The translations under genes were made by a program, and so were the position numbers. This document shows, piece after piece, positions 1,382 to 43,175 of a stretch of 43,175 bases of DNA (positions are counted from its first letter, which is position 1; each line of letters begins with the position of its first letter). The notes beneath the pieces are model-generated. The model did not search any database. It saw nothing but the letters and a program-made list of their open reading frames with translations, and was not told the DNA's origin. The stretch is taken from the NCBI GenBank assembly GCA_035495345.1, contig DATJGC010000068.1:1-43175 (forward strand), written 5' to 3'. Origin of the DNA: Chitinophagaceae bacterium (lineage in GTDB: Bacteria; Bacteroidota; Bacteroidia; Chitinophagales; Chitinophagaceae).

Positions 1382-1391
1382 ACCGTGTCTG

Positions 1392-2897: not shown

Positions 2898-2946
2898 TAT
2901 AATTAATTATTTTATCACGGCTATTTGCCTTGCGGCAGTAAGTCCG

Positions 2947-4152: not shown

Positions 4153-4286
4153 AATAGGGTGTGCTTAAGGGTAACGGATATTGCACGGGTAGTTAATCAA
4201 ATAAAAATTTATAAAACATAAAAGAGCAGAAAGCCAGCAAAAACAATGTGGCAATCACGCGCATAATCTTGTTTTCCAGGTGTTGC

Positions 4287-5513: not shown

Positions 5514-5531
5514 AAGGTAGCCGGTTACGGG

Positions 5532-6674: not shown

Positions 6675-6825
6675 GGTTTAAGGTTTAACGGTATAGTGAT
6701 GTACACAGGGCAGTGTTTACGTTTTGTAAACACAGGATTGTAAGCGCTACACAGGCAACCAATTATTTGATAAAAAAACAACAGCAACACAGGCACGATG
6801 TCAACAGGGATTATACAGATCTGTA

Positions 6826-9018: not shown

Positions 9019-9569
9019 AGAATGCGTTTTTTTGCAGTTTCAGAAAAAGGGTCAACAATGGGTAAACTGCCGGTTGAAGGCGCCAAATTACTTAAAATAA
9101 TAAAATATCTAAGTGCAGGGCGTCTCTGCTGCGCAGTTTCAAAAATCATTGTATTTAATAATAATGGTAGCACTGTCTTCGTGCATTGCTGCACCGGTAA
9201 TAGCGGAAGGTATTTCAACAGGATGGGTTTTCTTGCATGAACGGTATTAAATGATTGGTAAGCGTAAAATTTGCCATGGACCTTCTAAAAAATTACCAGA
9301 CTTTTGAATTTTTCTAGCGGATGTTCATATTGGAGCTATACGAAGAGTTACTAAGGTGCCATAAGTAGTAAGTCCCGGGTACTTTCCATGCGGATAGTGA
9401 AAGATATACGATGAACGCGTCACAAAAGTAATATTATTTTTCAATTATGGAAGTAAACAAACATTCGTTTGGCGCAATTTTGTTCCATAACGCAATGATA
9501 AAATAGGAGATCCGTACTATTATATACGTAATTCCGTTTATTCGCTGAAAATTGTAAAAGTCTGACCGC

Positions 9570-10754: not shown

Positions 10755-11105
10755 ATCATGAATGTTGAAAATTACCACATACAGGGTATTGCTTAGTGTT
10801 TAGTTTCAGTCTAGTTTTACACAGTCAATAAAATTTTAATGAGTGGCAGTTTGATTTGTTGATTTTTGTTGTTATTTTTACCCGGAAGTTAAGCCATAGC
10901 TAACTAGAATTCACTTAACTCCCGTATATACTTCTATATCCTTCGAAGGTCCACCAGCCTGTTACGTTTCTAAGGTTAATCCAACCACCTTTATAAGCCT
11001 GCAGATTTTTTTAATCCGTTTTCCATTACCCTATCATTGCCGTACCCGCATCCAATTGCAGCCTACTGAAAAATTGAGTTTCTTAAAACTTAATTATTCA
11101 AAAGA

Positions 11106-11510
11106 ATGAAAAGAAAGATTTTAGCAATTGACGAAAGCAAAGCTATCAGGTTTTTACTGCAGACAGTGCTAGGCCAAAAGCACCAGGTGATCACTGCAGC
11201 TGATGGATGCTCTGCACTTTACTGGCTTTCAAAGAGAAACTTGCCGGACGTAATCATTATAGACCCCCAATTACCTGACATGCAGAATTGGGAACTGCTG
11301 GAGCATTTAAAGTCCAGCGGGTTGTATGGTCATATTCCTATCATTGTGCTTTCTTCACTGGATGCTAAAGAGACACAACAAAGATGTAAAGAGCTGGGCA
11401 TTACAAGGTCATTTCAACAGCCTTTCAACCCGGTTGAACTGGAAGGCGCTATAGAAGAATTGCTGAAATATGAAAATAATAACGCTGGTACTGTCTTAAG
11501 GGCCGTATAA
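11106..11510 (+). CDS. Stand-alone response-regulator receiver domain protein (atypical)
   Basis: 134 aa with a CheY-like pattern: KILAIDES, a phospho-acceptor-like Asp in DVIIIDPQLPDM, and IIVLSS. The conserved Lys of the KPF motif reads QQPF. Confidence 0.8.
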   Translation: MKRKILAIDESKAIRFLLQTVLGQKHQVITAADGCSALYWLSKRNLPDVIIIDPQLPDMQNWELLEHLKSSGLYGHIPIIVLSSLDAKETQQRCKELGITRSFQQPFNPVELEGAIEELLKYENNNAGTVLRAV

Positions 11511-11562
11511 GTAACCCGAACCCCGAAAACAAATAATCCCTTAAATCAAAAATCTTACCTGA

Positions 11563-12723
11563 ATGGAACTTTTTTATTCACCAAAAGCCGGCGCTTCTGA
11601 GAAAAAGTATAGACACTATACTGTTAACTCTTTCACCGAGAAGGAACTTATCACAGAGAAGAAAAGAGAATTCTTCTATATTGGTAAGGATTCTTTTATC
11701 ATAGACAGCCTGGTTCAATCATTTGAAAGCGGCTATGCTGCCGAAAATGTAGACAATGCTATTTCCATTCTTAGCAAAGTCATCGAAAAAAGAAATATTT
11801 ACCCAGACGTAATACTGGCAGATGCTGCCATTGGCGCCCCCGCGCTCCAAAGTTTTTACAAGTTTATCGCCGGCAACCGCAGGCTGGCTGCTGTTCCCTT
11901 TCTGGTAGAATCTACAGATGCTGCCCCCAGAGAGCTGGTGGAACTGCGCAAACTGTCTTTTGTGGATGAAATCATTTCCATGCACCGGCAGTCAGATAAA
12001 CTGCTTTCCAAGATTTATTTTATCAAGAAAATCAAAGACGCCAGCAATATCAAATCGCTGCAGCAGAATATCGGGCAGTCGCCAGACCTCAGCACTGTAA
12101 ACAATGATATTTTTAAAAGGATTTTTGATATTGTGGTAGCGGCTATCATACTGCTGGCCCTGCTACCTGTCTTTGGACTGATTGCCCTGGCCATCCGCCT
12201 GGAATCTAAAGGACCGGTTTTTTACATTTCAAAAAGAGCCGGCCGCGGTTACCGCGTGTTCAACTTCTTTAAATTCCGCACCATGGAAGCCGGTGCAGAT
12301 AAGAAAGTAAACCAGCTTTCTCACCTCAACCAATACAATGCCGCTGCTGGCAACGGACCGGTATTTTTTAAAGTGAATAATGACCCCCGTATCACCAAAG
12401 TAGGGGCATTCCTGAGAAATACCAGCCTGGACGAGCTGCCACAATTTATTAATGTGCTGCTGGGCGATATGTCGCTGGTAGGCAACCGCCCCCTGCCCCT
12501 GTACGAGGCTGAAACCCTTACAACAGACGATTGGGCTGCCCGCTTTATGGCCCCTGCAGGCATCACCGGCCTCTGGCAAATCAAAAAACGCGGACAGGAT
12601 GATATGTCTGTGGAAGAAAGAATTGGCCTGGACATCGCTTATGCCAACCGCAACAACTTTATGTACGACCTGTGGATCATGGCCAATACGCCTACCGCAC
12701 TGATACAGAAGTCGAGCGTATAA
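11563..12723 (+). CDS. Priming polyprenyl-phosphate sugar-phosphate transferase (bacterial sugar transferase, WbaP/EpsL-like) with an N-terminal receiver-like domain
   Basis: The C-terminal half has [23 protein letters not shown] and a single TM helix ([25 protein letters not shown]), typical of small phosphoglycosyl transferases. The N-terminal ~170 aa have a receiver-like beta-alpha pattern (FFYIGKDS ... [11 protein letters not shown] ... VPFLVEST). Confidence 0.85.
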
Positions 12724-12771
12724 GCCGTTCTGCCTCCTTCTTCTTAATATTGCCGCAAAAAGAATCTTACC

Positions 12772-13680
12772 ATGTTGCCGGGTGCAGAACCGTTTGTATC
12801 TATCATCACCTTAAATTATAACCAGGCTGCCGTTACCTGTGAGTTTCTTGCCTCCTGCAGCCAGTTGCAATACAGCAATTATGAGATACTGGTCTGTGAT
12901 ATGGCTTCAGACACAGACCCCACGCCGCTCATAACCGCTGGCAATTACCCCAAAACAAGACTTTTACTCAGCAAAAAGAACCTGGGCTTTGCGGGGGGTA
13001 ATAACTGGGGCATGCGGCAGGCAAAAGGTGATTTTATCTTCATCGTAAACAATGATACGGAAGTAACGCCCGGGCTCATCCAGCGCCTGCTGGCACCTTT
13101 TTACAAGGATGCTTCTATTGGCGTAACCAGCCCCAAGATCAAATTCTTTTTTCAGCCCGGAATCATCCAGTATGCCGGCTTTAACCGCATGAACCACTTT
13201 ACCGGTCGCACTTCCACCGTAGGTGAAATGCAGCAGGATGCGGGGCAGTTTGATACCCCCGGTGAAACATTTGGCGCCCACGGCTGCGCCATGATGGTAA
13301 AACGTGAGGTCATTGAAAAAGTAGGCATGTTTCCGGAAAGGTTTTTTCTTTATTACGAAGAATGGGATTGGTCTGCACGCATACGCCGCGCGGGGTATAA
13401 AATATGGTATACAGCTGACGCCACCATCTATCATAAAGAATCCATGTCTGTAGGCAAGAAGAACCCCATGAAAGTGTTCTATCATACCAGGAACCGCATA
13501 CTGTATATGCGCCGAAACAGCACCTGGTACCAGCAGATTGTGTTTTTCCTGTTTTTTATATTTTTTGTTATCCCGCGTTATGTCATTGACTATTTTCGCA
13601 AGGGCGAATTTGAGCAATTGAAAAACTTTTTCAAAGGCTTTGCCTGGAACCTGTATTCTTCCAAATATTCAAAAGTATAA
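12772..13680 (+). CDS. GT2 glycosyltransferase
   Basis: 302 aa. It has VSIITLNYNQ and a DxD-like IVNNDTEV. The one C-terminal hydrophobic segment is typical of rhamnosyl/galactosyl-type GT2 enzymes. Confidence 0.8.
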   Translation: MLPGAEPFVSIITLNYNQAAVTCEFLASCSQLQYSNYEILVCDMASDTDPTPLITAGNYPKTRLLLSKKNLGFAGGNNWGMRQAKGDFIFIVNNDTEVTPGLIQRLLAPFYKDASIGVTSPKIKFFFQPGIIQYAGFNRMNHFTGRTSTVGEMQQDAGQFDTPGETFGAHGCAMMVKREVIEKVGMFPERFFLYYEEWDWSARIRRAGYKIWYTADATIYHKESMSVGKKNPMKVFYHTRNRILYMRRNSTWYQQIVFFLFFIFFVIPRYVIDYFRKGEFEQLKNFFKGFAWNLYSSKYSKV

Positions 13681-13721
13681 CGGGTAAGGATAGTGTAAAC
13701 TGCCCGTCCTGTTGCTGATAC

Positions 13722-14906
13722 ATGATCATTCTTCACATCATATTCTTTGTCATTTTTTTATACCTGGCGGTAAGCATTGCTTACTTCCTGGTGATTGCCA
13801 TTGCAGGCAGGTTTGGAAAATTGCCGCTGTACACGGCGCATGCGCACAAGAAAAATATTTGCGTTATCATTCCCTCGTATAAAGAAGACGCCATTATTGT
13901 AGATACGGCAAGAAAGGCGGCAGCGCATGATTACCCCGCCGCGCATTTTACTGTAATGGTAGTGGCAGACAGCCTTCAGCAGGAAACCATTGCGCAATTG
14001 CGCGCTATTCCTGTAACTGTGGTAGAGGCCAACGTGAGTATGAAATCACGTTCACTCAATGCTGCATTTCAAATACCGCCCGCTGGTGCTTTTGATATTG
14101 CGGTGATACTGGATGCTGATAATGTAATGGCGCCGGGTTGCCTGGAGAAAATCAATGACGCTTTTCACCAGGGTTGCCGCGCAGTGCAATGCCATAGAAC
14201 GGCCAAAAACCAGCATACTTCTGTAGCGGTGCTGGATGCCATCAGCGAAGAAATCAATATCAACCTGTTTCGCAGGGGGCCGGCGGTACTGGGTATTTCT
14301 GCAGCACCCATTGGCTCAGGGATGGCCTTTGATTTTGAACTTATCAAAGAAATTTTCAGCCTGCCGCATATTCTCAGTAACCCCGGCGAGGACCGTGAGA
14401 TTGATATGCAATTGATGAAGCGCGGTATTTTTATGCATTTCATCAATGACGCGTATGTATATGATGAAAAGGTTTCCAGCTCTGCCGTGTTTGAAAAACA
14501 AAGGGTTCGCTGGCTGGAAGCACAGATCAATCATGTAAAAAGATTTGCTGATGCCGATATGAAGGGTACGCCGTTGGGTATCACCGGGGCAGCAAAACTT
14601 TTCCAGAACCTGCTGCTGCCAAGGCTGCTGATGATAATGGTACTGGGTCTTTTTGCAGTGCTGCTGGTCTTGCAACAGCTTTTTTCGTTTAGTATTTTGC
14701 AGCCCGCACCCATTTACTGGTGGCTGATGATGGCCGCTTACGCCCTGGTGCTGTTCTTATCAGTGCCTGCGATGTTCTATAATAGTAAGACCCTCAGGGC
14801 CGTGGCACAAGTGCCCGTGCTGATGTTCTCCATGGTAAAAGCCCTGCTTAAAATAAAAGCCGGCAGAAAAGAATTCCTCCACACACCGAAAGTCTTCAAA
14901 TCGTAA
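13722..14906 (+). CDS. Membrane-embedded GT2 glycosyltransferase with the processive-synthase motif set
   Basis: 394 aa. It has an N-terminal TM helix, VIIPSYKED, ILDADNV, GEDREID, and the QRVRW (Q-R/Q-x-R-W) motif. C-terminal TM helices follow. Confidence 0.8.
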   Translation: MIILHIIFFVIFLYLAVSIAYFLVIAIAGRFGKLPLYTAHAHKKNICVIIPSYKEDAIIVDTARKAAAHDYPAAHFTVMVVADSLQQETIAQLRAIPVTVVEANVSMKSRSLNAAFQIPPAGAFDIAVILDADNVMAPGCLEKINDAFHQGCRAVQCHRTAKNQHTSVAVLDAISEEININLFRRGPAVLGISAAPIGSGMAFDFELIKEIFSLPHILSNPGEDREIDMQLMKRGIFMHFINDAYVYDEKVSSSAVFEKQRVRWLEAQINHVKRFADADMKGTPLGITGAAKLFQNLLLPRLLMIMVLGLFAVLLVLQQLFSFSILQPAPIYWWLMMAAYALVLFLSVPAMFYNSKTLRAVAQVPVLMFSMVKALLKIKAGRKEFLHTPKVFKS

Positions 14907-22016: not shown

Positions 22017-25000
22017 ATGAGAACAATTGTACGGGCAAGTATGCTTGCGCTAAGCTTATTGTCTTTTTGCACGCTCACATTTTCACAACAGGTTGCAAAG
22101 ACGATTCCGTATCCTGCCTCGCCAGATCGCGTTATTGGTTTCCTGGAATTTCGTCCGGCCGATTATGGCAGCCAGCAACATCCCCTCATCATTTTTCTGC
22201 ATGGTATTGGTGAACGTGGTAACGGCACGTCTCAAATTAATTCGGTGGCCGCCAACGGTATCCCTTACTATTGCTCACGCGGCGCCAGTATGCGTTTTAC
22301 TGTAGACAGACAAACATCTTCCTTTGTTGTACTCTCGCCTCAATTGAGTACACAATATGGCTACTGGCCAACTTTTTATGTAAAGGAGATGATTAAGTAT
22401 GCAAAGCAGAATCTTTCTATTGACCCCAACAGAATTTACATCACCGGCTTAAGCCTTGGTGGTGGTGGTATCTGGAGAGTGATTACCGATACGGAAAACT
22501 GGGACAATACCTTTGATGCTGGCATTGCCGCCGCAGCGCCGGTATGTGGTACACAGGAAGAAAATGATGCTGAATTCTGCAATACCATTGGCGCCAATCG
22601 TTTGCCCATCTGGGCTTTTCATAGTATGGATGATGGCACTGTAGGCGTGGGGGCCACCCAGCATGCCGAGATTCTTGCCAAGAATTGCAAGGTAAAACCA
22701 GATCCCATCTTCACTTATTACCAGAGTGGCGGCCATGGTGGTGCATGGGTAAATGCCTATGATACCGGTCATATCACCCGCACAGTAAACGAGAACGGCA
22801 AACAGAAAAATTTTACGGCTTCCCCTAATTTATACGAATGGTTTTTGAGCCAGAGCAGGAATAACCAGGGCCAACCTGCCAACACGCCTCCAGTGGCCGA
22901 TGCAGGCGCTGCTCAAATCATTACGCTGCCTGTTAATAGCCTTACCTTATCTGGTAATGGTACAGGTACCAACGGCGCCAGCATCAGTTCTTACAGCTGG
23001 ACCAAGACCAGCGGACCGGCAGCAGGCGTCATCAGCCTTCCACTTTTAAATACAACACTTGTTACCGGTCTTGCACAAGGCAATTATGTGTTTACCCTCA
23101 CCGTAACAGATAACCATGGTTTATCCAGCAGCGCAAGTGTAAATGTAACCGTTAACCCGGCCGCCAATCGTGCACCTACAGCCAACGCAGGCCAGGATAT
23201 AAACATCACTTTGCCTGATAATACTGTTACTCTTAATGGAAGCGGTAATGACCCGGATGGTTCTATCTCGGCCTATAACTGGACAAAAAGCAGCGGTCCC
23301 GGCGGTGCAAGAATTGCCAATCCCAATGCAGCCAGTACCAATGTCAGCAATCTCAGCGCGGGTGTATATGTCTTTACATTGAAGGTAACAGACAATGCAG
23401 GTGCAACTGCCAGCAACGATGTAACCGTAACGGTTAATGCCGCACCCAATAAGGCACCGATTGCCTATGCGGGCCCTAACCAGCAAGTTACATTGCCCGA
23501 TAATAAGGTTACGCTGGATGGTGGCACTTCCTTTGACCCCGATGGCCAGATTGATGCGTTTTACTGGACAAAAGAAAGCGGCCCTGCATCTTACAAAATC
23601 AATAACCAGAATGCAGCCAAGATAAATGTAAGTAACCTGGTGGCCGGTACCTATGTATTTAACCTGCAGGTAAGAGACAATGATGGCGCTACCAGCAATT
23701 CAAGCGTAAGCGTAACGGTTAACCCAGAGGCCGCCGCACAAGCGCCACCTGCTGCCAATGATGAACAACCTATTGGGTATATAAAAATGACTGAAGGCCC
23801 GTCACAGGGATGTGATGACAGTCGCACCGCCGGCAGGTTTGCCATCTACAGCAGCAGCATCGCCAAAGGCAGTCTTGTTTACCTTGACGCGGCCCATACG
23901 CAATTGTTTGATGGCGGATGGAACTGGTACGCCTATTCACCCACCAGGAGCGGATCTGTAACGCAATGTTTTGCTATTTATCCGAACGGCGGCATGGACC
24001 TCATTACTGCCTGCAACGGAAGCACCTCAGAGGCCAGGCCAACGCCGCCACCGCCACCTCCGCCACCACCGGCTGCCAACCAGTTGCCCGTGTCTAATGC
24101 TGGCCCTGATATTGACATTACCCTGCCCGTGAGCAGTGCCCAACTAAGCGGCAATGGTTCTTACGACCCCGATGGCACCATCTCTGGCTATTGGTGGATA
24201 CAGGATCGCGGCCCGTCATCCGTAACTTTCTCAGACCAGGCAGCTTCCAACTGTGTTGTCAGCAACCTGGTAGAAGGATTGTACAATTTTACATTGCAGG
24301 TGAAAGATAATACCGGTACTCCTACTTACTCATCCATGATTGTAAGGGTACATCCTGCACCAGCAGTGAACAACCAGCCAATAGGGTATATAAAAATTGC
24401 TGCCGGACCGGCCCAGGCCTGTGATGATAAATCAAGAGGCGGCAGGTTCCCGATTTACAGCGATAATATAGCCAAGGGCAGCCTTGTATACCTTGATGCC
24501 GCGCATACGCAACTGTTTGACGGTGGCTGGAACTGGTATTCTTACTCACCTGCAGAACATGGTGAAGTAACACAGGCCTTTGCCATCTACCCCAACGGAG
24601 GCATGGATTTACTCACCGGCTGTTCCGTAAACGGACCTTCTGCACCCGCGCCGCCTCCTGCACGGAGCAACCTGCTGGGCTATATAAAAATTACTACCGG
24701 CCCGGGACAGGCTTGTGATGATAATACTACTGATGGAAGAATGGCGCTCTATGGCAAAAGCATTGCCAACGGCAGCTATGTATATACCGATGAAGCCATG
24801 ACGCAGATCTTTGATGGCGGTTGGAACTGGTACTCCTTTACACCCACTTATGGTGGTGCCGTTACACAGGCTTTTGCAGTATTCCCCATTGGTACCATTG
24901 GACTGCTCACCAATTGCAGTAACAGTAGTGCAAGGCTGGCCGCTGACCAATCCGCTGCGCTGCAAGACAGCATCAATGCCGCCAGTGCAAGATCAATTGC

Positions 25001-25283
25001 CAATGCTTCCGCTACGCTGCTGGGTACTGGTAAATTATCACTGTATCCTAACCCTGTGCGTACCTCCAGTACCATTGAGTTAAGCAGTACAGAAAACAGC
25101 AACAAGCTGGTGAAATTGTATACTGCAGGCGGAACCCTGATAGCGAGTTATCGCTGGCAGGTAGTTAAGGGACTTAACAGGTTTACGCTGCAACAGGTAG
25201 CCGGGTTGAGCGCTGGTCTTTACTATATCAGTATCAGCGACAACAAAGGACCGGAGCAAAAACTTAAGTTTATAAAAATGTAG
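22017..25283 (+). CDS. T9SS cargo P3: COG4099-type alpha/beta-hydrolase + 4 PKD-like repeats + 3 copies of an unassigned Cys-bracketed module + type A CTD
   Basis: The signal peptide is MRTIVRASMLALSLLSFCTLTFSQQ. The hydrolase motifs match P1 (FLHGIGERGNG, GLSLGGGG, HSMDDGTV, GGHGGAW). PKD-like repeats lie at about 22887-23745 and 24079-24357. The unassigned modules are at 23766-24020, 24375-24625 and 24669-24920. The CTD reads LYPNPVRTSSTIEL... Confidence 0.9.
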   Translation: MRTIVRASMLALSLLSFCTLTFSQQVAKTIPYPASPDRVIGFLEFRPADYGSQQHPLIIFLHGIGERGNGTSQINSVAANGIPYYCSRGASMRFTVDRQTSSFVVLSPQLSTQYGYWPTFYVKEMIKYAKQNLSIDPNRIYITGLSLGGGGIWRVITDTENWDNTFDAGIAAAAPVCGTQEENDAEFCNTIGANRLPIWAFHSMDDGTVGVGATQHAEILAKNCKVKPDPIFTYYQSGGHGGAWVNAYDTGHITRTVNENGKQKNFTASPNLYEWFLSQSRNNQGQPANTPPVADAGAAQIITLPVNSLTLSGNGTGTNGASISSYSWTKTSGPAAGVISLPLLNTTLVTGLAQGNYVFTLTVTDNHGLSSSASVNVTVNPAANRAPTANAGQDINITLPDNTVTLNGSGNDPDGSISAYNWTKSSGPGGARIANPNAASTNVSNLSAGVYVFTLKVTDNAGATASNDVTVTVNAAPNKAPIAYAGPNQQVTLPDNKVTLDGGTSFDPDGQIDAFYWTKESGPASYKINNQNAAKINVSNLVAGTYVFNLQVRDNDGATSNSSVSVTVNPEAAAQAPPAANDEQPIGYIKMTEGPSQGCDDSRTAGRFAIYSSSIAKGSLVYLDAAHTQLFDGGWNWYAYSPTRSGSVTQCFAIYPNGGMDLITACNGSTSEARPTPPPPPPPPPAANQLPVSNAGPDIDITLPVSSAQLSGNGSYDPDGTISGYWWIQDRGPSSVTFSDQAASNCVVSNLVEGLYNFTLQVKDNTGTPTYSSMIVRVHPAPAVNNQPIGYIKIAAGPAQACDDKSRGGRFPIYSDNIAKGSLVYLDAAHTQLFDGGWNWYSYSPAEHGEVTQAFAIYPNGGMDLLTGCSVNGPSAPAPPPARSNLLGYIKITTGPGQACDDNTTDGRMALYGKSIANGSYVYTDEAMTQIFDGGWNWYSFTPTYGGAVTQAFAVFPIGTIGLLTNCSNSSARLAADQSAALQDSINAASARSIANASATLLGTGKLSLYPNPVRTSSTIELSSTENSNKLVKLYTAGGTLIASYRWQVVKGLNRFTLQQVAGLSAGLYYISISDNKGPEQKLKFIKM
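23766..24920 (+). repeat. Three in-frame copies of a ~84-aa unassigned module (GYIK..GP.Q.CDD....GR...Y...IA.GS.VY.D...TQ.FDGGWNWY...P....VTQ.FA..P.G...L...C). One PKD-like repeat lies between copies 1 and 2.
   Basis: Copies are at 23766-24020, 24375-24625 and 24669-24920, read directly from the P3 translation. Pro-rich linkers lie between them. Confidence 0.85.
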
Positions 25284-25791: not shown

Positions 25792-27750
25792 ATGAGAACT
25801 ACTATGAAAACCCTTGCCATTGCTGCGTGCAGCATACTTTTTAGCATGCAGCTGCTGGCACAGCAAACAGCGAAAACGCTATCCTATTCTTCGGCCCCGG
25901 GGGGGATTATCGGCTTTTTAGAATTTAAGCCTTCAGATTACGGCACACAGAAACATCCATTGATCATTTTTCTGCATGGCATTGGTGAAAGAGGTAATGG
26001 CACCACGCAAATTAATACAGTGGCCAACAATGGCATACCTTATTACTGCGCCAATGGAGCCACCATGCGTTTTACCGTGGCTGGCCAAACTTCTTCTTTT
26101 GTGGTGCTGTCACCGCAGCTGAGTACCACTTATGGTTATTGGCCAACTTTTTATGCCAAGGAAATGATCAAATATGCTAAGGCTAACCTGCAGATAGATA
26201 CCAACCGTATCTATGTTACCGGTTTAAGTCTTGGCGGAGGCGGTATCTGGCGACTGATTACCGATGCACAGGGCTTTGATTATACGTATGATAAAGGCCT
26301 TGCGGCCGCTGCACCAATCTGCGGTACGCAGGAAGAAACCGATGCAGATTTTTACGGTACCATTGGTGCCAACCATCTGCCGGTATGGGCTTTTCACAGT
26401 ATGGATGATGGCGTTGTAGGTGTAGGCGCTACACAGCATGCTGAAATTCTCGGCAATATTGTAGGCGTTAACAGCCCTGCTATTAAATTTACGTATTACC
26501 AGAGCGGTAATCATTCCGGTGCCTGGGTAAATGCCTATGATACCGGTCATATCACACGCACAGTAAACGTAAATGGCAGCCTCCAGAGCTTTACCGCCAA
26601 TCCTAATTTGTATGAATGGTTTTTGAGCAATACAAGGGCAGTTAACACGCCCCCTGTGGCATTGGCCGGCGCAGCACAATCTATTACACTGCCTTCCACT
26701 ACCGCCACATTAAATGGCAGCGGCACGCCTACCAATGGCGCCAGCATTGCTACTTATGCCTGGACAAAAACCAGCGGTCCGGCCGGTGGCACCATTACCA
26801 CTGCTAATGCCGCTACTACAACCGTCACCGGTTTATCACAGGGCGTATATGTTTTTACGCTTACCGTAACAGACAACCATGGTCTTTCTGCCAGTTCTAC
26901 TGTTACTATTACCGTGGTGCCTGCACCAGTGGCCATCGCTGGTCCGCCACAAACCATCAGCACTACTTCTACCGTGCTGGATGCTGCAGCTTCCTATTCT
27001 CCAAATGGCTCCATTACTGCTTATAGCTGGACGCAGGTTGCCGGCCCCGCGGCTGCTACCATTGCAAACCCCAGCTCTGCCACACCCATTGTATCCAACA
27101 TGCTGGCGGGTAGTTCATATTCTTTCCAGCTTACCGTTACCGATGTACTGGGTGCCAGCGGATCTGCCGTTACCGGTGTTACGGTAACCATGGCCGCGCT
27201 GCCGGTAGAGTTTGCCTACTTCAACGCACAGAAAAATACAGCTGGTAACCTTTTACAATGGGGTACTGCCACCGAATTAAACAATGATTATTTTGTGGTA
27301 GAACGCAGTGAAGATGGTAGTCATTTTGCCAGCATTGGTAAGGTAGCGGGCGCTGGCAGCAGTACGATGCCGCACAGCTATAGTTTTACAGACAGTAAAT
27401 CATTGGCTGCTACCAATTACTATCGTTTAAAACAGGTAGATAAGAACGGCAGCTTCACACTGTCAAAAGTAATTACAGTGCGCAACGACAATTATACCGG
27501 TGGCAGCCTGGTATATCCTAACCCGGTATTGGCAAGCATGTCTGTTACCATTGACAACGAAGTGAAAGGAAAAGGCCAGATTGCTGTGTACGATGTTATG
27601 GGCCATACCGTAAAACAGGCATCGCTGAGTAAAAGCGAACGTCTGCTCAGCACATCCATCGCTATGAATGATCTTGTGCCGGGTATTTATATGGTGGAAG
27701 TAAAGATTGGCGATGCTTTCAGGATCACCAAACGCGTAATGAAACAATAA
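25792..27750 (+). CDS. T9SS cargo P4: COG4099-type alpha/beta-hydrolase + 2 PKD-like repeats + pre-CTD beta domain + type A CTD
   Basis: The signal peptide is MRTTMKTLAIAACSILFSMQLLAQQ. Hydrolase motifs are FLHGIGERGNG, GLSLGGGG, HSMDDGVV and GNHSGAW. The CTD reads VYPNPVLASMSVTI... Confidence 0.9.
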   Translation: MRTTMKTLAIAACSILFSMQLLAQQTAKTLSYSSAPGGIIGFLEFKPSDYGTQKHPLIIFLHGIGERGNGTTQINTVANNGIPYYCANGATMRFTVAGQTSSFVVLSPQLSTTYGYWPTFYAKEMIKYAKANLQIDTNRIYVTGLSLGGGGIWRLITDAQGFDYTYDKGLAAAAPICGTQEETDADFYGTIGANHLPVWAFHSMDDGVVGVGATQHAEILGNIVGVNSPAIKFTYYQSGNHSGAWVNAYDTGHITRTVNVNGSLQSFTANPNLYEWFLSNTRAVNTPPVALAGAAQSITLPSTTATLNGSGTPTNGASIATYAWTKTSGPAGGTITTANAATTTVTGLSQGVYVFTLTVTDNHGLSASSTVTITVVPAPVAIAGPPQTISTTSTVLDAAASYSPNGSITAYSWTQVAGPAAATIANPSSATPIVSNMLAGSSYSFQLTVTDVLGASGSAVTGVTVTMAALPVEFAYFNAQKNTAGNLLQWGTATELNNDYFVVERSEDGSHFASIGKVAGAGSSTMPHSYSFTDSKSLAATNYYRLKQVDKNGSFTLSKVITVRNDNYTGGSLVYPNPVLASMSVTIDNEVKGKGQIAVYDVMGHTVKQASLSKSERLLSTSIAMNDLVPGIYMVEVKIGDAFRITKRVMKQ

Positions 27751-27755
27751 TTAAA

Positions 27756-28349
27756 TTACCTGAAAGGTTTATAAAATGAAAAGGTGGCAAGTTCCAGCAT
27801 GGGCTTGTCACCTTTTGTATCTCCATAACCCAGTATTTCATCGTAGGCACTGAGATCATAGGCCTGGCGGATGCGTGCTACTTTCTCCTGTCCATGGCAA
27901 TTACGGTTTTCAATCTTACCGGTGATACGCCCTTCCTTCACTGCTAACTTTGTGCCCAGCAGTTGTACGCCGTTGGTCTGGCACCAGTGCTGTAACCAGT
28001 TTTCTGCAGAGGCGGAAACAATGACCACCTCGGTACCCGCTGCCAATAGTTTTTTTATTTCCAGCAAAGCCTTTGGTCTTACCAGTGATGGCAGCGCTGT
28101 TGCTGAAAACTGGTTGCTCATTTCATTGAAGCGCTCCTGCGTCATCCTCCCAAAAAAATATTGCATCATCCGCTCTTTAGCGGCCTGGTTAGAAATGAGC
28201 CCAGCCTTCCATGCAATGATGAAGGGTGCATTGAGGATAAAACCCATGTAGAACCTTGCAGATCCTTTGCAGTATTTTATTATTTCCAGGAAACTGTCTT
28301 TTGTAGTAATGGTGCCGTCAAAATCAAAAAAGGCGATTCTCTTTTTCAC
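27756..28349 (-). CDS. HAD-IB family phosphatase
   Basis: 197 aa. HAD motif I is FFDFDGTIT and the C-terminal motif is GYGDTKGDKPML. The GTG start overlaps the stop of the upstream SDR gene by 4 nt (GTGA). Confidence 0.8.
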   Translation of the reverse strand: MKKRIAFFDFDGTITTKDSFLEIIKYCKGSARFYMGFILNAPFIIAWKAGLISNQAAKERMMQYFFGRMTQERFNEMSNQFSATALPSLVRPKALLEIKKLLAAGTEVVIVSASAENWLQHWCQTNGVQLLGTKLAVKEGRITGKIENRNCHGQEKVARIRQAYDLSAYDEILGYGDTKGDKPMLELATFSFYKPFR

Positions 28350-29077
28350 AGCTTCATCTTTTTAAACTGGAATTCCGGTATGTTTCTGATGATGAGCATT
28401 ATCCACCGCCACATCCACCGCACATACACGGTATTTGTTTTTTTCTGTACCGCATTGTACACGGCATTGCCTACTTCTTCGGGTGACGCGGTTAGTACGG
28501 CGGGCAACTGCAGTGACTCTGTCATTCTGGTATATACAAAGCCGGGTTTTACTGTTACCACATGTACATTGTCGTTAAATAATTTATTCCTCAAGCCATC
28601 CAGGTAGGCCGTAAACGCCGCTTTGCTGCTGCCATAAATCAATTTGCTTTGCCTACCCCGCTCACCTGCCACTGAGCTGATACCGGCAATGCAACCGCTT
28701 TTTACAGACTGGTAATACTTTGCCGCCACTGTAAGAATAGACACAGCGCCGGTAAAATTGCTGTTGATCATTCTTTCGGCTACGGACCAGTCGTTATACG
28801 CCAGCTCCTCGTCTTCCATCACACCAAATACGCAGATGGTAACCTCCGGTTTTACGGGCAATTGATCAAAGAAGGCAGCGTGGGTGTTGTACTGCAGCGC
28901 GTCAAAGGCATGCAACGTACAGGTTACATTGTGCCGCAATTGCAGGTCTGTCTGAAACGCAGTGAGCCGGCTGGTATCTCTTGCTGCCAGTTGCACGGCG
29001 TATTTGTTTTTAGCAAAAGTTCTTGCAATTGCCAGCGCCATATCAGATGTAGCGCCTAAAATTAAAACAGTAGGCAT
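28346..29077 (-). CDS. Short-chain dehydrogenase/reductase, DprE2-like
   Basis: 243 aa. The N-terminus is VLILGATSDMALAIA and the catalytic region is SSVAGERGRQSKLIYGSSKAA (YxxxK). It also has VVTVKPGFVYTRMT and a C-terminal amphipathic tail, RWIMLIIRNIPEFQFKKMKL. Confidence 0.7.
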   Translation of the reverse strand: MPTVLILGATSDMALAIARTFAKNKYAVQLAARDTSRLTAFQTDLQLRHNVTCTLHAFDALQYNTHAAFFDQLPVKPEVTICVFGVMEDEELAYNDWSVAERMINSNFTGAVSILTVAAKYYQSVKSGCIAGISSVAGERGRQSKLIYGSSKAAFTAYLDGLRNKLFNDNVHVVTVKPGFVYTRMTESLQLPAVLTASPEEVGNAVYNAVQKKTNTVYVRWMWRWIMLIIRNIPEFQFKKMKL

Positions 29078-29140
29078 GTGTAGGTCGGTTGTTTATTTTT
29101 CCTTTTACTGAAAATGATCGTGTTCGGGCAAGCATCGTTC

Positions 29141-30031
29141 TTAAAATACGGTATTGTCTTTCCAGTACAGGAGCGCCACAAACCCAGCCACCCAGAGCAG
29201 GAGGGTGGCCTGTATAAAGCGGTCTTTGTACAATACATCTGTAGGAGAGCCCGCGGCATTCTGCACCAGCGTGATCTGCAGGTAACGCATGAGGCCGGCA
29301 ATAACAAAGATGGCCGTATAATACAGGTGATAGGTACCTGTATGTGCAATGGTTACCGGTGATACGCAATACATGATATAGGCCATGATGATGATGGCAC
29401 TGAACATGGCCAGCATGGTGTTCAGGAAGTCTACATTGTATCCCTTTACGGCTTTGCGCATGTCTGCACCGGTCTCCAGTTTTAAAATAATATCATCTCG
29501 CCTTTTGCCAATGGCCATAAAGAGCGCCAGCAGCAAGACCATCAGGTTTAGCCATACAGAGACATCAATATTGGCAACATACCCGCCAGACTTTACACGC
29601 AGTGAAAAACCAATGGCCACAATCAGTATATCCAGCACCGGAATATTTTTAAGGCCGAAGGAATAACCCAGGTTCATGGCAAAGTAGAAGGCAAGGATGG
29701 AGATAAAACGCAGCTTGGCATCTGCTATATAGGCCAGCGTAAAACCGGCCACCAGTATCACTGCAGCAATAATTAACGCGGTTGCTGGTTTTACTGCACC
29801 GGAAGCCAGCGGCCTGAGTCTTTTTTTAGGATGCTTTTTATCATCTTCAATATCCCTGTAATCATTGATGATGTATACAGTGCTGGCAACAAAACAAAAA
29901 GCAAAAAAAGCCGCCACCAGGTGTTCCAGTCGTGAAAAGTCAAACAGCTTTCCACCAAAGAAAACAGGCAGAAACAGGAAAAGATTCTTAGCCCAATCTT
30001 TTGGTCTAAGTAGTTTGATGATGGGTGGCAT
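29141..30031 (-). CDS. UbiA-superfamily prenyltransferase, polyprenyl-phosphate phosphoribosyltransferase-like
   Basis: The track ORF starts at TTG 30067. I prefer ATG 30031 (MPPIIKLLRPKDWAKN). It has the Asp-rich motif NDYRDIEDD followed by KKHPKKRLRPLASG, and 8-9 TM helices. Confidence 0.75.
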   Translation of the reverse strand: MPPIIKLLRPKDWAKNLFLFLPVFFGGKLFDFSRLEHLVAAFFAFCFVASTVYIINDYRDIEDDKKHPKKRLRPLASGAVKPATALIIAAVILVAGFTLAYIADAKLRFISILAFYFAMNLGYSFGLKNIPVLDILIVAIGFSLRVKSGGYVANIDVSVWLNLMVLLLALFMAIGKRRDDIILKLETGADMRKAVKGYNVDFLNTMLAMFSAIIIMAYIMYCVSPVTIAHTGTYHLYYTAIFVIAGLMRYLQITLVQNAAGSPTDVLYKDRFIQATLLLWVAGFVALLYWKDNTVF

Positions 30032-30139
30032 ATAACGCTTGGTTGTACGGGCGCCAAGATACTCCAATAATGCTGACTGTACAATACCACTTTGCAGGAT
30101 GGGTTGGGTTTGCTACTTTTAGCCGCGAAATTAACCGCT

Positions 30140-31741
30140 ATGAAGAAATTACTCGCTATAGGAGAAGTGTGCCTGATTATACTGCTCGCGTTCTTCCCGC
30201 TCTTTGGCAAGTTTCCCTATAGAATTAATATTTTCTTATCGTACGAAGGCGCCTACCGCATGTCTGAAGGGCAATTGCCCTATAAAGATTTCGGCATACC
30301 GCTGGGCTATATGTATTGGGTGGTGCCTGCGGTTTTCTTCAAACTGTTTGGTCCGTACATGATCAGCCTGGTAAAGGCGCAGGTCTTCCTCAATATTATT
30401 GCAGGTCTCTCTTTCCGCTCCATTCTGAAAAGCCTTTCGGTGAATGCAGGGGTACGTTTCCTCTGTGTATTGTTGTTTATTATCTCTTACTCTTTCTTCA
30501 ATTACTGGCCCTGGTACAACCATACCGTTATTGTGTATGAACTGGTGGCCCTGGCCATGCTCATGAAATTTATCTTCAGTCCGGGTACGCGTTGGCGTTA
30601 TGCCTGGCTGGTGCTGAGTGCAATATTTGTTTTCTTCTCCTTCTTTACCAAGCAGGATGGGGGCGGATTGGCGCTGCTGATCTGCCTGGCCCTGCTTATT
30701 TATAATGCAATCTATGAGCGCGACTGGAAGCAACCGCTGATTTTTGTGGCCAGCCTGCTGCTGACCGGTTTTTTAATGATTGCGCCTTTTTTGAAATACA
30801 ATTTTGGCTACTGGTTTAACCATGGCCAGCCACCCCATACCTCGCGTTTTTCCTTTGGCGATATTGCCGAAGACTTCTTCAACAATTCTCCCTGGATACG
30901 CTTTTATATTTTTGTGATACTCTTATTGTTGCTGGCCCGGGTAAAAGCATTCTGGCCGTTCTTGCGTAACAAACAACTGATGATCTTTACGCTGCTCACC
31001 TTTGGTATACTGGCCGAAGCTGCCATCTTCCAAACCACCAGCTATATTCCGGCAGACAACAATATCTTCTTTCACAGTTTTGCCATTGCTTTTATTTTGG
31101 CGCTGCTGGCAGAATACCTGCCGGTTGATTTTGAATCGTTCAAAACCATTGGCATCGCCGGCATTGGCATGCTGCTATGGTGGAGCAACGTGTATTGGAA
31201 ATATGTTTCCAAATACATTGTACCTGCAGAACCACCCATTGTAAATACAGACGGTATTGTAAATAAGAAGACCTACCTGATACAGAAGCCCGATACCTCT
31301 GATGTGCCGATGGATCAGTGGCGAACACCAAAGCTGGCTTCTTTTAAAAGGATGCTTTTGCCAGGCCCCACCGTAGATGGCATTGAAAGGCTGATGAATA
31401 TGCCACTCGTTAAAAACAACCCGCATTTAAAAGTGCTTAATATGACGGAGCTTACTCCCCTGGCGTATGAAATGAAATTCAGCCTGGAAAGAAGTCCTGC
31501 GTATCCGCTTTGGTTTCATAAGGGCGTGGGCATGTTTCAGCAGCAGACAGATATGTTTTGCGATAGAATCAAAAACAACTATTATGATCTTGTATTGTTT
31601 GAATACATTCCGTTCCTGAATAATTTCTATCCCTTCCAGGTGAGGGACCAGCTATTGCAACACTATAACCGGGTAGATGTTTTTACGGCACCCCGCAAGC
31701 CTTCTATACAGGCTTGGGTGGAGGTGTATGTGAGGAAGTGA
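30140..31741 (+). CDS. Large polytopic membrane protein with a C-terminal soluble domain; candidate GT-C-fold glycosyltransferase
   Basis: The track ORF starts at TTG 30092. I prefer ATG 30140 (MKKLLAIGEVCLIILLAFFPLF). The first loop has GQLPYKDFGIPLGYMYW. About 10-12 hydrophobic helices run to ~aa 370, followed by a ~170-aa hydrophilic tail. It is divergent from the UbiA operon. Confidence 0.55.
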   Translation: MKKLLAIGEVCLIILLAFFPLFGKFPYRINIFLSYEGAYRMSEGQLPYKDFGIPLGYMYWVVPAVFFKLFGPYMISLVKAQVFLNIIAGLSFRSILKSLSVNAGVRFLCVLLFIISYSFFNYWPWYNHTVIVYELVALAMLMKFIFSPGTRWRYAWLVLSAIFVFFSFFTKQDGGGLALLICLALLIYNAIYERDWKQPLIFVASLLLTGFLMIAPFLKYNFGYWFNHGQPPHTSRFSFGDIAEDFFNNSPWIRFYIFVILLLLLARVKAFWPFLRNKQLMIFTLLTFGILAEAAIFQTTSYIPADNNIFFHSFAIAFILALLAEYLPVDFESFKTIGIAGIGMLLWWSNVYWKYVSKYIVPAEPPIVNTDGIVNKKTYLIQKPDTSDVPMDQWRTPKLASFKRMLLPGPTVDGIERLMNMPLVKNNPHLKVLNMTELTPLAYEMKFSLERSPAYPLWFHKGVGMFQQQTDMFCDRIKNNYYDLVLFEYIPFLNNFYPFQVRDQLLQHYNRVDVFTAPRKPSIQAWVEVYVRK

Positions 31742-31763
31742 GAGAGAAATTAAAAAGTCAAAA

Positions 31764-32054
31764 TTAAAAATTAAAAAGTCTTTGGCCTGGTTGGTTTCAC
31801 GCGGCGTGCGCAATGAGGCAGCGAGCGCAAAGATGCACAAGCCTCTTTATCCCTTTCTCTCTTTGTTTCGCTTAGCCCTCTGTTAGCTCTGTTGTCTCTG
31901 TGCGAAAAAATTAAAAATTAAAAAGTCTTTGGCGTTGGTTTCACGCGGCGAGCGCATTGAGGCAGCGAGCGCAAAGATGCACAAGCCTCTTTATCTCTGT
32001 CTCTCTTTGTTTCTCTTAGCCCTCTGTTAGCTCTGCTGTCTCTGTGCGAAAAAA
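31764..32054. repeat. Two tandem direct repeat units (~147 and ~144 bp)
   Basis: Unit 1 runs 31764-31910 and unit 2 runs 31911-32054. Both start with attaaaaattaaaaagtctttggc and end with ctctgtgcgaaaaaa. They differ by a 3-nt indel and a few substitutions. Confidence 0.9.
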
Positions 32055-32066
32055 TTGAAAGGTATA

Positions 32067-32125
32067 AAGTCAAAAGTCCTTTGCTCTGTTAGGTCCAAGA
32101 TTTTTGATTTTTGACTTTTGACTTT
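32067..32125. repeat. 13-bp perfect inverted repeat of GTCAAAA-type tracts (long hairpin or bidirectional terminator candidate)
   Basis: aaagtcaaaagtc (32067-32079) is the exact reverse complement of gacttttgacttt (32113-32125), with a 33-nt spacer. Confidence 0.7.
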
Positions 32126-32463
32126 TGACACACTGTTGTCCGGTTAATCTTTTAATTGATCGGCCTCAAAGCCGGCCGGGCTTCTCACCCGCTGGCGCCG
32201 CTGTGTTTTACTTTTATGCTATAACTCAGCTGTAGTAAGCTTTTCAGCCATTGCATGGTTGAGCTGTAGTACAAAGCTCACGGAAAACCGAAGGTTCATC
32301 AATTCCATAAAGATTAATTGGCGCATTGATAAAACGAAGGCGGCTTTTGCGGGTGTTGGTGTCTGAATCGCCTTGGTAAGCCCCTTGCTCGGCGAACTAG
32401 TACCGGAGACACTTCCATAAAGCATTTAGTAGAAAAGTAACGAATGTTTCCCGGACACGAGTG

Positions 32464-32520
32464 CTTTTGAATTTTGACTTAGTCAAGCGTTTTTGACTTT
32501 TGACTTTTTACTTTTGAATT
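32464..32520. repeat. TTTTGAC/TTTTGA heptamer-like tract abutting the stop codon of the GT2 gene
   Basis: The sequence is cttttgaattttgacttagtcaagcgtttttgacttttgactttttacttttgaatt. It contains the small palindrome ttgacttagtcaa. Confidence 0.7.
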
Positions 32521-32522
32521 AC

Positions 32523-33356
32523 CTACCCCGCTGATTGCCCACCATACTTACTGTTGTTGGTAACAATTCGCTTAACACGTTTTACCAGGCCTTTCCACAG
32601 TCCGCCATCCTGCTGTATCCGGCGGTCGGTCGTCCAAACCAATGCCCTGGTATCAGTAACATAATGCAATTTGCCAAAACCTTTATCGCGCAGTTTAAGC
32701 GCCAGCCATCCATCTTCATTGGCTTCTGGCGGATGGTCGAAGCCGTTAACGGCCAGTCCCTGCGCACGTTTAAAACCAGAATTGAAACCATATACGTTCA
32801 CAGCTTCTTCCCTGAAGGCTTTATTAAACAGCCGCATCCAATCGGCCATGTATTCATAAAAAAAATAGACAGTGCGCGGTGTATTCGCCGTAGGCAAAAA
32901 AGAAAAGCGGCCATACACGGCCGTTATATCATCCTTTTCAAGCGGCTGCACCATTTGTTCTATCCAGTCTGGCGGGTAAATGGTATCGGCATCGGCATTC
33001 AGCACATATTTGCCCAGTGCTGCGGCCAGTCCGGCATTGCGCGCAGGCGTAATGCCCTGCTTTGTTTCATTGATACAGCGGGCACCCGTTTTTAGCACAA
33101 TGGCTTCTGTATTGTCTTTTGAATTATTGTTTACCACGATGATCTCCACAGAGCGGCGGGTCACCGATTTGGAGAGGCAATACAGGGTTTTTAAGATAGA
33201 GGCTTCTTCATTGTACGCGGGCATCACCACGCTTACTTCGGGAGGGCCCTGCAGCAAGCGTGCAAAGTTGTCTTTGATGTTGGCTATTTCCTTCTCCAGC
33301 ACCTCATTGGTTTGGTTATATGCCTGAATATGGGCCGGAATAGTTATCGGTCGCAT
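32523..33356 (-). CDS. GT2 glycosyltransferase (soluble, monocistronic)
   Basis: 277 aa. It has VSVVMPAYNEE and a DxD in LNADADTIY. Confidence 0.8.
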   Translation of the reverse strand: MRPITIPAHIQAYNQTNEVLEKEIANIKDNFARLLQGPPEVSVVMPAYNEEASILKTLYCLSKSVTRRSVEIIVVNNNSKDNTEAIVLKTGARCINETKQGITPARNAGLAAALGKYVLNADADTIYPPDWIEQMVQPLEKDDITAVYGRFSFLPTANTPRTVYFFYEYMADWMRLFNKAFREEAVNVYGFNSGFKRAQGLAVNGFDHPPEANEDGWLALKLRDKGFGKLHYVTDTRALVWTTDRRIQQDGGLWKGLVKRVKRIVTNNSKYGGQSAG

Positions 33357-42452: not shown

Positions 42453-43175
42453 CTAATATTTGCGGTCGGTGGTATAGCGTACCAGTTCTTCAAGAGTGCG
42501 CCGCACATCGGAATCATCAAACTCATAGAGCAACTGCAGGGCCTTGTCGCGGTATTCTTCCATCTTTTTTCTTGTATAGTCGATGCCCCCGCTTGCCTTC
42601 ACGGCTTCAATTACTTCGTGTACTTTTTCTTTGCGGCGGTTTTCATTTTTAATGATATAGATCAGTTTGTTTTTCTGCCGGCTGTCTGCGTGGTTAAGTG
42701 CATATATTAACGGCAGGGTGAGTTTCTTTTCACGGATATCGTTGCCCGTGGGTTTGCCCACGTTGTCTGAGCCATAGTCAAACAGGTCGTCTTTGATCTG
42801 GAAGGCGATGCCTACCCATTCTCCAAACTGTCGCATTTTGGCAGCCGCCAGCTGGTCCTGGGTAGCAGAATAGGCGCCGGCTGCGCAGGAAGAGGCGAGG
42901 AGGGAGGCGGTCTTATTTTTTATGATTTCAAAGTAAGTGTCTTCCTGGAGGTTGAGGTTACGGGCTTTTTCAATTTGCAGCAGTTCACCCTCGCTCATTT
43001 GTTTAACGGCGTGCGATAAAATCTTCAGCACCTCAAAATCGTCATTATCCAGTGAAAGGAGGAGGCCCTTGGAAAGCAGGTAATCCCCCACCAGTACGGC
43101 CACCTTGTTTTTCCAGAGTGCGTTAATGGAAAAGAAGCCGCGGCGTTCATAAGATTCGTCCACCACATCATCGTG
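42453..43175 (-). CDS. Polyprenyl diphosphate synthase (IspB/octaprenyl-type), C-terminal part; the N-terminus lies outside the window
   Basis: The reverse-strand frame is open to the right edge, where it reads HDDVVDES (first Asp-rich motif). The second motif is FQIKDDLFDY, and the C-terminus is ...LVRYTTDRKY. Confidence 0.85.
   Translation of the reverse strand, partial: HDDVVDESYERRGFFSINALWKNKVAVLVGDYLLSKGLLLSLDNDDFEVLKILSHAVKQMSEGELLQIEKARNLNLQEDTYFEIIKNKTASLLASSCAAGAYSATQDQLAAAKMRQFGEWVGIAFQIKDDLFDYGSDNVGKPTGNDIREKKLTLPLIYALNHADSRQKNKLIYIIKNENRRKEKVHEVIEAVKASGGIDYTRKKMEEYRDKALQLLYEFDDSDVRRTLEELVRYTTDRKY

Follow-up and report, generated by a model that had tools for sequence, protein, structure and literature searches.

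A UbiA-SDR-HAD operon of soil Chitinophagaceae, predicted to build a lipid-linked pentofuranose, from which the DprE1 gene has been deleted

The mycobacterial decaprenyl-phospho-arabinose (DPA) pathway comprises Rv3806c, Rv3807c, DprE1, DprE2, and the Emb/Aft glycosyltransferases of the GT-C fold. DprE1 and DprE2 are a major tuberculosis drug-target pair and are regarded as an obligate two-enzyme epimerase, and Rv3807c is a phosphatase of the PAP2 type. Three-component pentofuranose glycosylation systems have since been defined, which consist of a polyprenyl-phosphate 5-phosphoribosyltransferase (PPPRS) with a HAD phosphatase, a flippase, and a GT-C glycosyltransferase, with optional epimerases (Kelly et al. 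2024, PNAS; PMC11127046). The D-arabinofuranosylation of pilin in Pseudomonas aeruginosa Pa5196/PA7, as cited in that paper (see also bioRxiv 10.1101/2020.04.19.049825), employs a PPPRS, homologues of both DprE1 and DprE2, and the GT-C protein TfpW. Bacteroidota are not mentioned in PMC11127046 or its supplement, and no publications were retrieved when the literature was searched for DprE1/DprE2 in combination with Bacteroidetes or Chitinophaga; the one publication matching decaprenylphospho and Bacteroidetes deals, judging by its title and abstract, with a gene cluster of eustigmatophyte algal plastids that has no relation to this system. Here, an operon of three co-directional minus-strand open reading frames (ORFs; positions 27756-30031) was analyzed in a 43,175-nt stretch of DNA from a soil Bacteroidota (Chitinophagaceae; contig DATJGC010000068.1), referred to below as the window. 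The operon encodes a UbiA-family protein, a short-chain dehydrogenase/reductase (SDR), and a HAD-IB phosphatase, and a membrane protein of predicted GT-C fold is encoded divergently beside it. The four genes probably constitute one module for building a pentofuranose on polyprenyl phosphate and passing it to a periplasmic acceptor. The DprE1 gene that most relatives carry between the UbiA and SDR genes was removed at least seven to eight times independently within the Chitinophagaceae, and the SDR is under strong purifying selection without it, with no decay. The features concerned are the following.

29141..30031, minus strand: UbiA-family protein of the PPPRS (Rv3806c) type, 296 aa, assigned from NCBIfam cut-offs and the match to 8j8j
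29078..29140, minus strand: 63-nt spacer, the DprE1 deletion site, where relatives carry the gene for a 443-aa DprE1
28346..29077, minus strand: DprE2-like classical SDR of the PRK07102 family, 243 aa, assigned from the PRK07102 score and the match to the DprE2 structure
27756..28349, minus strand: HAD-IB phosphatase, 197 aa, GTG start, assigned from TIGR01490 and Pfam HAD; candidate polyprenyl-P-ribose-5-phosphate 5'-phosphatase
30140..31741, plus strand: divergent 533-aa integral membrane protein of predicted GT-C fold, from AlphaFold2 and Foldseek; candidate pentofuranosyltransferase

With the DPA pathway, the window shares an Rv3806c homologue bearing the catalytic NDxxDxxxD motif, a DprE2 homologue that includes the C-terminal amphipathic tail, and a predicted GT-C consumer comparable to AftA, AftB, and EmbA/B/C, while the DprE1 homologue is shared by the relatives of the window. 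It differs in that DprE1 is missing and that a HAD-IB phosphatase is present instead of Rv3807c, which is unrelated to the HAD-family phosphatases (PMC11127046). The actinobacterial equivalog models mark a further difference, as the window SDR scored 188.4 bits against the DprE2 model NF053786 (cut-off, 250) and the DprE1 proteins of the relatives scored 420 to 440 bits against NF053785 (cut-off, 500). The lipid carrier here is presumably undecaprenyl phosphate rather than decaprenyl phosphate. With the Citrobacter youngae O1/O2 prototype of the three-component systems, the window shares a UbiA-type polyprenyl-phosphoribose synthase of the kind that uses 5-phosphoribosyl 1-pyrophosphate (PRPP), a HAD-family phosphatase as candidate for removal of the 5-phosphate, optional epimerase genes, which in the prototype alter the pentose when gained or lost, and a co-encoded protein of GT-C fold, predicted in the window, with about 11 transmembrane helices, a helical periplasmic insert after the first of these, an extra C-terminal domain, and ArnT as the closest fold. 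The window GT-C protein lies outside the Pfam and NCBIfam families, and its likeness to Citrobacter ORF12/CAZy GT136 is one of description. In Citrobacter, however, the HAD phosphatase is the N-terminal domain of the synthase, whereas the HAD-IB phosphatase of the window is a separate protein, and the prototype has a MATE flippase (SMR or GtrA type in other systems), whereas none is evident near the window module. As auxiliary enzyme, the window has only the reductase of the DprE1/DprE2 pair, and PMC11127046 describes no such combination. The Pseudomonas system, compared here by description, shares with the window a Gram-negative setting and a PRPP-derived lipid-linked donor, which in Pseudomonas carries arabinofuranose (Araf), with a GT-C consumer, but it keeps both DprE1 and DprE2 and its target is the type IV pilin. 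A first-pass annotation, made from the sequence of the window, had proposed an uncharacterized lipid-linked pentose; the pathway class, however, had already been characterized in Gram-negative bacteria (PMC11127046). The bare presence of the genes is not new either, since the JGI automatic annotation already labels these SDR and FAD proteins DprE2 and DprE1.

The tight packing described in the first-pass annotation, with the 63-nt gap between the UbiA and SDR genes and the 4-nt GTGA shared by the SDR stop and the HAD start, was seen in the sequence, and the HAD gene is translationally coupled to the SDR gene. The motifs listed there were likewise all found, namely NDYRDIEDDKKHPKKRLRPLASG, SSVAGERGR...YGSSKAA, KPGFVYTRM, and the SDR tail RNIPEFQFKKMKL; the HAD protein also has FDFDGT. 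The loci most closely related to this one come from Chitinophagaceae genomes and metagenome-assembled genomes, and the operon is deduced not to be a chance arrangement since its gene order is kept across dozens of species. The UbiA frame is open upstream to a TTG at 30067, but the ATG at 30031 is favored because it fits the relatives, which were called at 297 aa.

The UbiA-family protein passed two NCBIfam equivalog models for decaprenyl-phosphate phosphoribosyltransferase, NF008977 (236.9 bits; cut-off, 234) and NF008978 (220.3 bits; cut-off, 207), and did not reach a third phosphoribosyltransferase model, NF008976 (181 versus 474). The models for heme O synthase, UbiA (4-hydroxybenzoate prenyltransferase), EboC, and ChlG gave 20 to 36 bits against cut-offs of 210 to 313. 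Its matches among solved structures were entries for Mycobacterium tuberculosis Rv3806c only, the best being 8j8j (E=1.4e-42, alignment residues 14-296), in which NDYRDIEDD aligns with NDVRDVEAD of cytoplasmic loop II (N-D-x-x-D-x-x-x-D). The equivalent residues are essential in Citrobacter ORF15 (PMC11127046). Membership of the polyprenyl-phosphate phosphoribosyltransferase family, which had been proposed in preference to the quinone and heme prenyltransferases, is supported by these data, and the protein would be expected to have the corresponding activity.

The SDR scored 317.5 bits against PRK07102 (cut-off, 267) and about 60 bits against the FabG models (cut-offs, 220 to 300). Its sole match in the PDB at E<=1e-10 was M. 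tuberculosis DprE2 (21gq_C, E=4.5e-27, residues 3-241), and the Ser/Tyr/Lys triad and the C-terminal tail are kept in the alignment. The earlier proposal that this is a DprE2-type rather than a generic SDR is borne out by these data. The same pattern of passing PRK07102 and failing the DprE2 model was observed for the DprE1-adjacent SDRs of Chitinophagaceae, Kiritimatiellales, Caldilineaceae, and Cyclobacteriaceae. Furthermore, over its full length the window SDR shares 44% identity with the SDR portion of P0368, a natural DprE1-SDR fusion. From the shared scoring pattern near DprE1 and the similarity to the fusion, PRK07102 was deduced to be the counterpart of DprE2 outside the Actinobacteria, and DprE1 and a PRK07102-type SDR were found adjacent in other phyla too.

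The distribution of DprE1 was obtained from a scan of species-level genomes with an SDR alignment, which returned 80 loci, or 83 (81 distinct) when three earlier loci were added. The core families across the 83 loci were the SDR (83), UbiA (68), HAD (65), a 443-aa protein (54), and the GT-C protein (53). The 443-aa protein, encoded between the UbiA and SDR genes, was identified as DprE1 from its NF053785 score given above and from its match to solved DprE1 structures (E=1e-84). Of the 80 species loci, 49 have it between UbiA and SDR, and 59 have a DprE1 of some kind. In the remaining 21, DprE1 was not seen within 10 kb on either side, and in 19 of these the UbiA gene abuts the SDR gene as it does in the window; the two exceptions are L024, which is truncated by a contig edge and thus uninformative, and L068, which has an ArnT-like GT-C gene beside the SDR and neither UbiA nor DprE1. 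For the window, Pfam scans of the 25 gene-like ORFs among 41 of at least 120 aa (the remaining 16 overlap longer ORFs and fell outside the scans) detected no FAD_binding_4 or DprE1 domain, tblastn with type-1 and type-2 DprE1 (type 2 being the divergent form described below) gave nothing better than E=3, and a search of the 63-nt spacer for a DprE1 remnant gave a chance-level local alignment only. The Pfam and tblastn results agree with the first-pass statement that the window holds no DprE1-like FAD oxidase.

In a tree of concatenated UbiA, SDR, and HAD sequences, the DprE1-less loci formed seven separate clades nested among DprE1-containing loci (seven to eight over 100 bootstraps), and eight clades (range, eight to nine) when three loci found through the GT-C gene (L164-L166) were added. 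One of the latter is the sister contig L166, whose UbiA and SDR are 80% and 76% identical to those of the window and whose synteny is the same (T9SS-PKD, HAD, SDR, DprE1, UbiA, GT-C, GT2, RecG, and DUF7948, where T9SS denotes the type IX secretion system) with DprE1 retained. This contig fell outside the DprE1-less clade of the window, as its sister, in 98 of 100 bootstrap replicates. From this sister with DprE1 and the nested position of the DprE1-less clades, the ancestral operon is deduced to have been UbiA-DprE1-SDR-HAD, with clean excision of DprE1 in the window lineage. The absence of DprE1 from the set, as first described, thus stands, but not as a feature of Bacteroidota at large; most relatives keep UbiA-DprE1-SDR-HAD, and the comparisons identify it as a lineage-specific deletion.

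Every DprE1-less locus has an intact SDR, with the NAD-binding motif and the catalytic Ser/Tyr/Lys invariant. For close pairs, the ratio of SDR to UbiA distance was 1.08 in DprE1-less and 1.14 in DprE1-containing loci, and no column of the SDR alignment separates the two groups. The dN/dS of the SDR was approximately 0.06 to 0.09 in three DprE1-less clades, with dS saturated, and was similar in DprE1-containing clades. The six loci that were found via GT-C instead of the SDR all contain the SDR; DprE1 is present in four and lacking in two, and none is a UbiA-HAD cluster without the SDR.

Several further arrangements of these genes were noted. Among the 150 best-matching representative clusters, at least 10 have DprE1 (FAD_binding_4) fused to a PRK07102-type SDR, and one UbiA-DprE1 fusion was also seen; the fusion proteins include P0368, P0371, P0385, and P0457 (approximately 630 to 700 aa) and P0501 (725 aa). 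A divergent type-2 DprE1 adjoins the SDR on the opposite strand in Cytophagales (L057:6509-7870, L067:1639-3000, and L083:10707-12065); it is approximately 40% identical to type 1, yet scores 437 to 480 bits on NF053785, and has no UbiA or HAD gene within 10 kb. In Kiritimatiellales, a Gfo/Idh/MocA-type protein resembling glycoside 3-dehydrogenases (L071:2993-4411) follows DprE1-SDR in place of the HAD gene, which may hint at further sugar redox chemistry on the same donor.

The HAD-IB protein scored 107.4 bits against TIGR01490 (cut-off, 98.3) and 115 bits against Pfam HAD, and it has the DxDGT nucleophile motif; no match was obtained to the HAD part of the fused PRK08238 model. Its gene accompanies the SDR in 65 of 83 loci and UbiA in all but 3 of the 66 distinct UbiA-bearing loci, two of these three being cut at a contig end. 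The HAD "phosphoribose phosphatase" (PRP) domain of Citrobacter ORF15 is an experimentally shown 5-phosphatase (PMC11127046). By analogy with this precedent, and from the operon coupling, the window HAD would be the 5-phosphatase of polyprenyl-P-ribose-5-P, in line with the 5-phosphate removal suggested for it earlier and with its near-constant association with UbiA.

The 533-aa membrane protein, whose ORF is open upstream from a TTG at 30092, had no sequence match in Pfam, NCBIfam, or the PDB, even when a 22-member profile was searched against the PDB, and every one of its 1790 homologues is annotated "hypothetical". An AlphaFold2 model built from a 42-sequence alignment had a mean pLDDT of 80.4 and a pTM of 0.84. 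When this model was compared to the PDB with Foldseek, the first 21 matches were all GT-C proteins (probability >=0.92, and 0.99 to 1.00 for the first 20; TM score, 0.3 to 0.5), including ArnT, Pmt4, AftA, STT3, EmbA/B/C, AftB, AglB, and ALG3, which use polyprenyl-phosphate sugars. The model has approximately 11 transmembrane helices, a helical insert after the first, and a C-terminal soluble domain, and E36, Y39, R40, and D50 in the loop-1 insert are invariant. The protein is thus predicted to have a GT-C glycosyltransferase fold and is a candidate pentofuranosyltransferase. Its gene adjoins UbiA in 53 loci, and this conserved, divergently encoded neighbor lends weight to the first-pass view that the lipid-linked pentose is used outside the cytoplasm.

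The following mechanism is proposed. The UbiA-family protein would condense PRPP with polyprenyl phosphate to give polyprenyl-P-ribose-5-P, from which the HAD-IB phosphatase would remove the 5-phosphate to leave polyprenyl-P-ribofuranose. The DprE2-like SDR would, by homology, catalyze an NAD(P)H-dependent reaction at C2 of the sugar on its lipid carrier, and the donor would then be flipped and its sugar transferred by the GT-C protein to a periplasmic acceptor. The ancestral UbiA-DprE1-SDR-HAD operon would have been a complete route for the 2'-epimerization of ribose to arabinose, DprE1 having been excised after the split from the sister lineage. Our preferred reading, to which we give a little under an even chance, is that an oxidase that is non-orthologous to, or divergent from, the operon DprE1 acts in trans, that the SDR still reduces a 2-keto intermediate, and that the product is polyprenyl-P-arabinofuranose. 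This reading is preferred because strong purifying selection maintains the SDR both in the window lineage and in no fewer than six further, independent clades that lack DprE1. The genes can also be dispersed, as type-2 DprE1 occurs without UbiA (L057, L067, and L083) and the SDR occurs without both (L068). The DprE1 family is very large, with 1915 representative clusters at E<=1e-30 in a search that carried no genome context. Several results weigh against the explanation proposed here. No oxidase gene was found in the 43-kb window, and no gene family was specific to or enriched in the DprE1-less loci within 10 kb on either side. When metagenomes were scanned with an alignment of type-1 DprE1, 80 loci were recovered (71 to 95% identity to the query); all 74 with usable flanks had UbiA upstream and the SDR downstream, none being an orphan, and the six others were cut off but consistent with the UbiA-DprE1-SDR order. 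Simple relocation of the DprE1 ortholog is therefore disfavored. None of the best 120 DprE1 homologues lay on the complete contigs of DprE1-less relatives (6468847, 6517676, and 7568047 bp), which is a weak negative as that list, obtained with the L007 DprE1 as query, was saturated at >=75% identity. No MatE, GtrA, or SMR domain of a flippase was present in the 25 scanned window ORFs, all of at least 120 aa, and the substrate of the HAD protein, the donor and acceptor of the GT-C protein, and the reaction catalyzed by the SDR are predictions. Across the 83 loci, no further conserved neighbor family was found. Second SDRs in L028, L036, and L065 were considered as a substitute oxidase and rejected as generic FabG-like proteins.

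The absence of orphan DprE1 also speaks for a rival explanation, in which the loss was a true one that switched the sugar, with the module stopping at polyprenyl-P-ribofuranose, the GT-C protein adding ribofuranose (Ribf), and the SDR kept as a structural partner or for another substrate. DprE1 is lacking in the window and in 21 of 80 species loci, eight independent clean deletions are easier to understand as losses than as relocations, and there is a parallel in the Citrobacter O1/O2 switch by epimerase loss, where epimerase gain or loss alters the pentose and the GT-C is promiscuous (PMC11127046). A useless reductase should decay, however, and the intact SDRs with their invariant catalytic residues and NAD motif, a relative rate equal to that of DprE1-containing lineages, a dN/dS below 0.1 over saturated synonymous divergence, and the lack of an SDR-less UbiA-HAD cluster among the six GT-C-anchored loci make such a switch unlikely. 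The repeated loss of DprE1 with unchanged SDR constraint could instead mean that the SDR is self-sufficient, oxidizing and re-reducing C2 with bound NAD(H) as a single-enzyme 2'-epimerase, for which Citrobacter ORF13, a GalE-like single SDR that epimerizes undecaprenyl-P-Ribf to the xylofuranose (Xylf) form, provides a model (PMC11127046). The window SDR, however, is a 243-aa classical, DprE2-like protein rather than an extended GalE-type epimerase, and no sequence change marks the DprE1-less SDRs. Mycobacterial DprE2 is generally held to need DprE1, and the adjacency or fusion of DprE1 and this SDR family in most lineages implies that the SDR normally depends on an oxidase, so that we regard self-sufficiency as quite improbable. 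It was also considered that the genes have no link to pentose chemistry, the UbiA-family protein being of the quinone, heme, or ebo type and the SDR and HAD being generic housekeeping enzymes adjacent by chance. The UbiA, SDR, and HAD superfamilies are indeed large and functionally diverse, and the assignments made here rest on sequence. This explanation is nevertheless very improbable given the two equivalog models passed by UbiA against its 20 to 36 bits on the alternatives, its structural matches to Rv3806c only, DprE2 as the nearest solved relative of the SDR with FabG scores far below cut-off, and the retention of the operon with DprE1 and GT-C across many genera.

Together, the eight independent deletions, the unchanged SDR constraint, and the lack of orphan DprE1 indicate that this family can dispense with the operon's DprE1, which is the unusual point of the locus. 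The deletions with a strongly selected reductase amount to a natural experiment on the ability of the reductase to function with a different oxidase or by itself. Should an oxidase gene be present at another place in the genome, the locus would simply represent a known pathway in split form and would be of modest importance. A bolder proposal, which we consider doubtful, is that in several Chitinophagaceae lineages the SDR works without any genomic DprE1-type oxidase, either as a self-sufficient 2'-epimerase or on another lipid-linked pentose or keto-pentose, and that the GT-C protein installs an undescribed pentofuranose modification on an envelope glycan; if this were true, the DprE1/DprE2 pair would be separable. 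Through this locus, soil Bacteroidota also join the bacteria with the recently defined pentofuranose glycosylation systems; the locus further turns a "hypothetical" membrane family of 1790 homologues into candidate GT-C pentofuranosyltransferases, and predicts undescribed Araf or Ribf decorations on Chitinophagaceae envelope glycans.

One further glycosyltransferase gene lies close to the module.

32523..33356, minus strand: GT2 glycosyltransferase, 277 aa (Pfam Glycos_transf_2, 107 bits)

It occupies the same position in L001, L004, L164, L166, and L169 and is absent from the wider conserved core. Its conservation as a neighbor is confined to the clade of the window and the closest relatives of that clade, so that its membership of the system is uncertain. 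The 780-nt noncoding gap between the GT-C and GT2 genes (31741-32523) contains two tandem copies of approximately 144 nt (31790-31927 and 31934-32071) that are 93% identical, are flanked by short A/T-rich AAAAGTCAAAA-type direct and inverted repeats, and have no Rfam match. Nothing over background emerged when the locus was scanned against Rfam and for sigma-70 promoters and terminators; Bacteroidota promoters lie outside the scope of the latter scan.

Elsewhere, the window has a Wzy/Wzz-type polysaccharide locus and genes for T9SS cargo proteins, RecG, and RecJ. The polysaccharide locus, of the Wzy-dependent type (653-14906), encodes an outer-membrane efflux/OEP-like protein, a Wzy_C/O-antigen-ligase-like protein, two Acyl_transf_3 proteins, a GT1, a Wzz-tyrosine-kinase-like protein, three GT2 proteins, a response regulator, and a Bac_transf initiating transferase, and could possibly supply the acceptor glycan for the GT-C protein. 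A polyprenyl synthetase gene (42453-43166, minus strand) is cut by the window end. That the genome bears a T9SS, as stated in the first-pass annotation, is evident from the Por_Secre_tail, CHU_C, and PorP/SprF domains found in the window with Pfam. Two paralogous T9SS-secreted proteins (22017-25283 and 25792-27750, plus strand) begin with an esterase-like domain (Abhydrolase_2) that is almost the same in both, and K319L-like PKD domains and Por_Secre_tail come after it. The 1088-aa paralogue has three repeats of an unassigned module of approximately 130 to 140 aa (…PIGYIK…CDD…FDGGWNWY…) and a poly-proline linker. This Abhydrolase_2/PKD family of T9SS proteins flanks the pentose operon in 27 related loci, and the linkage is conserved.

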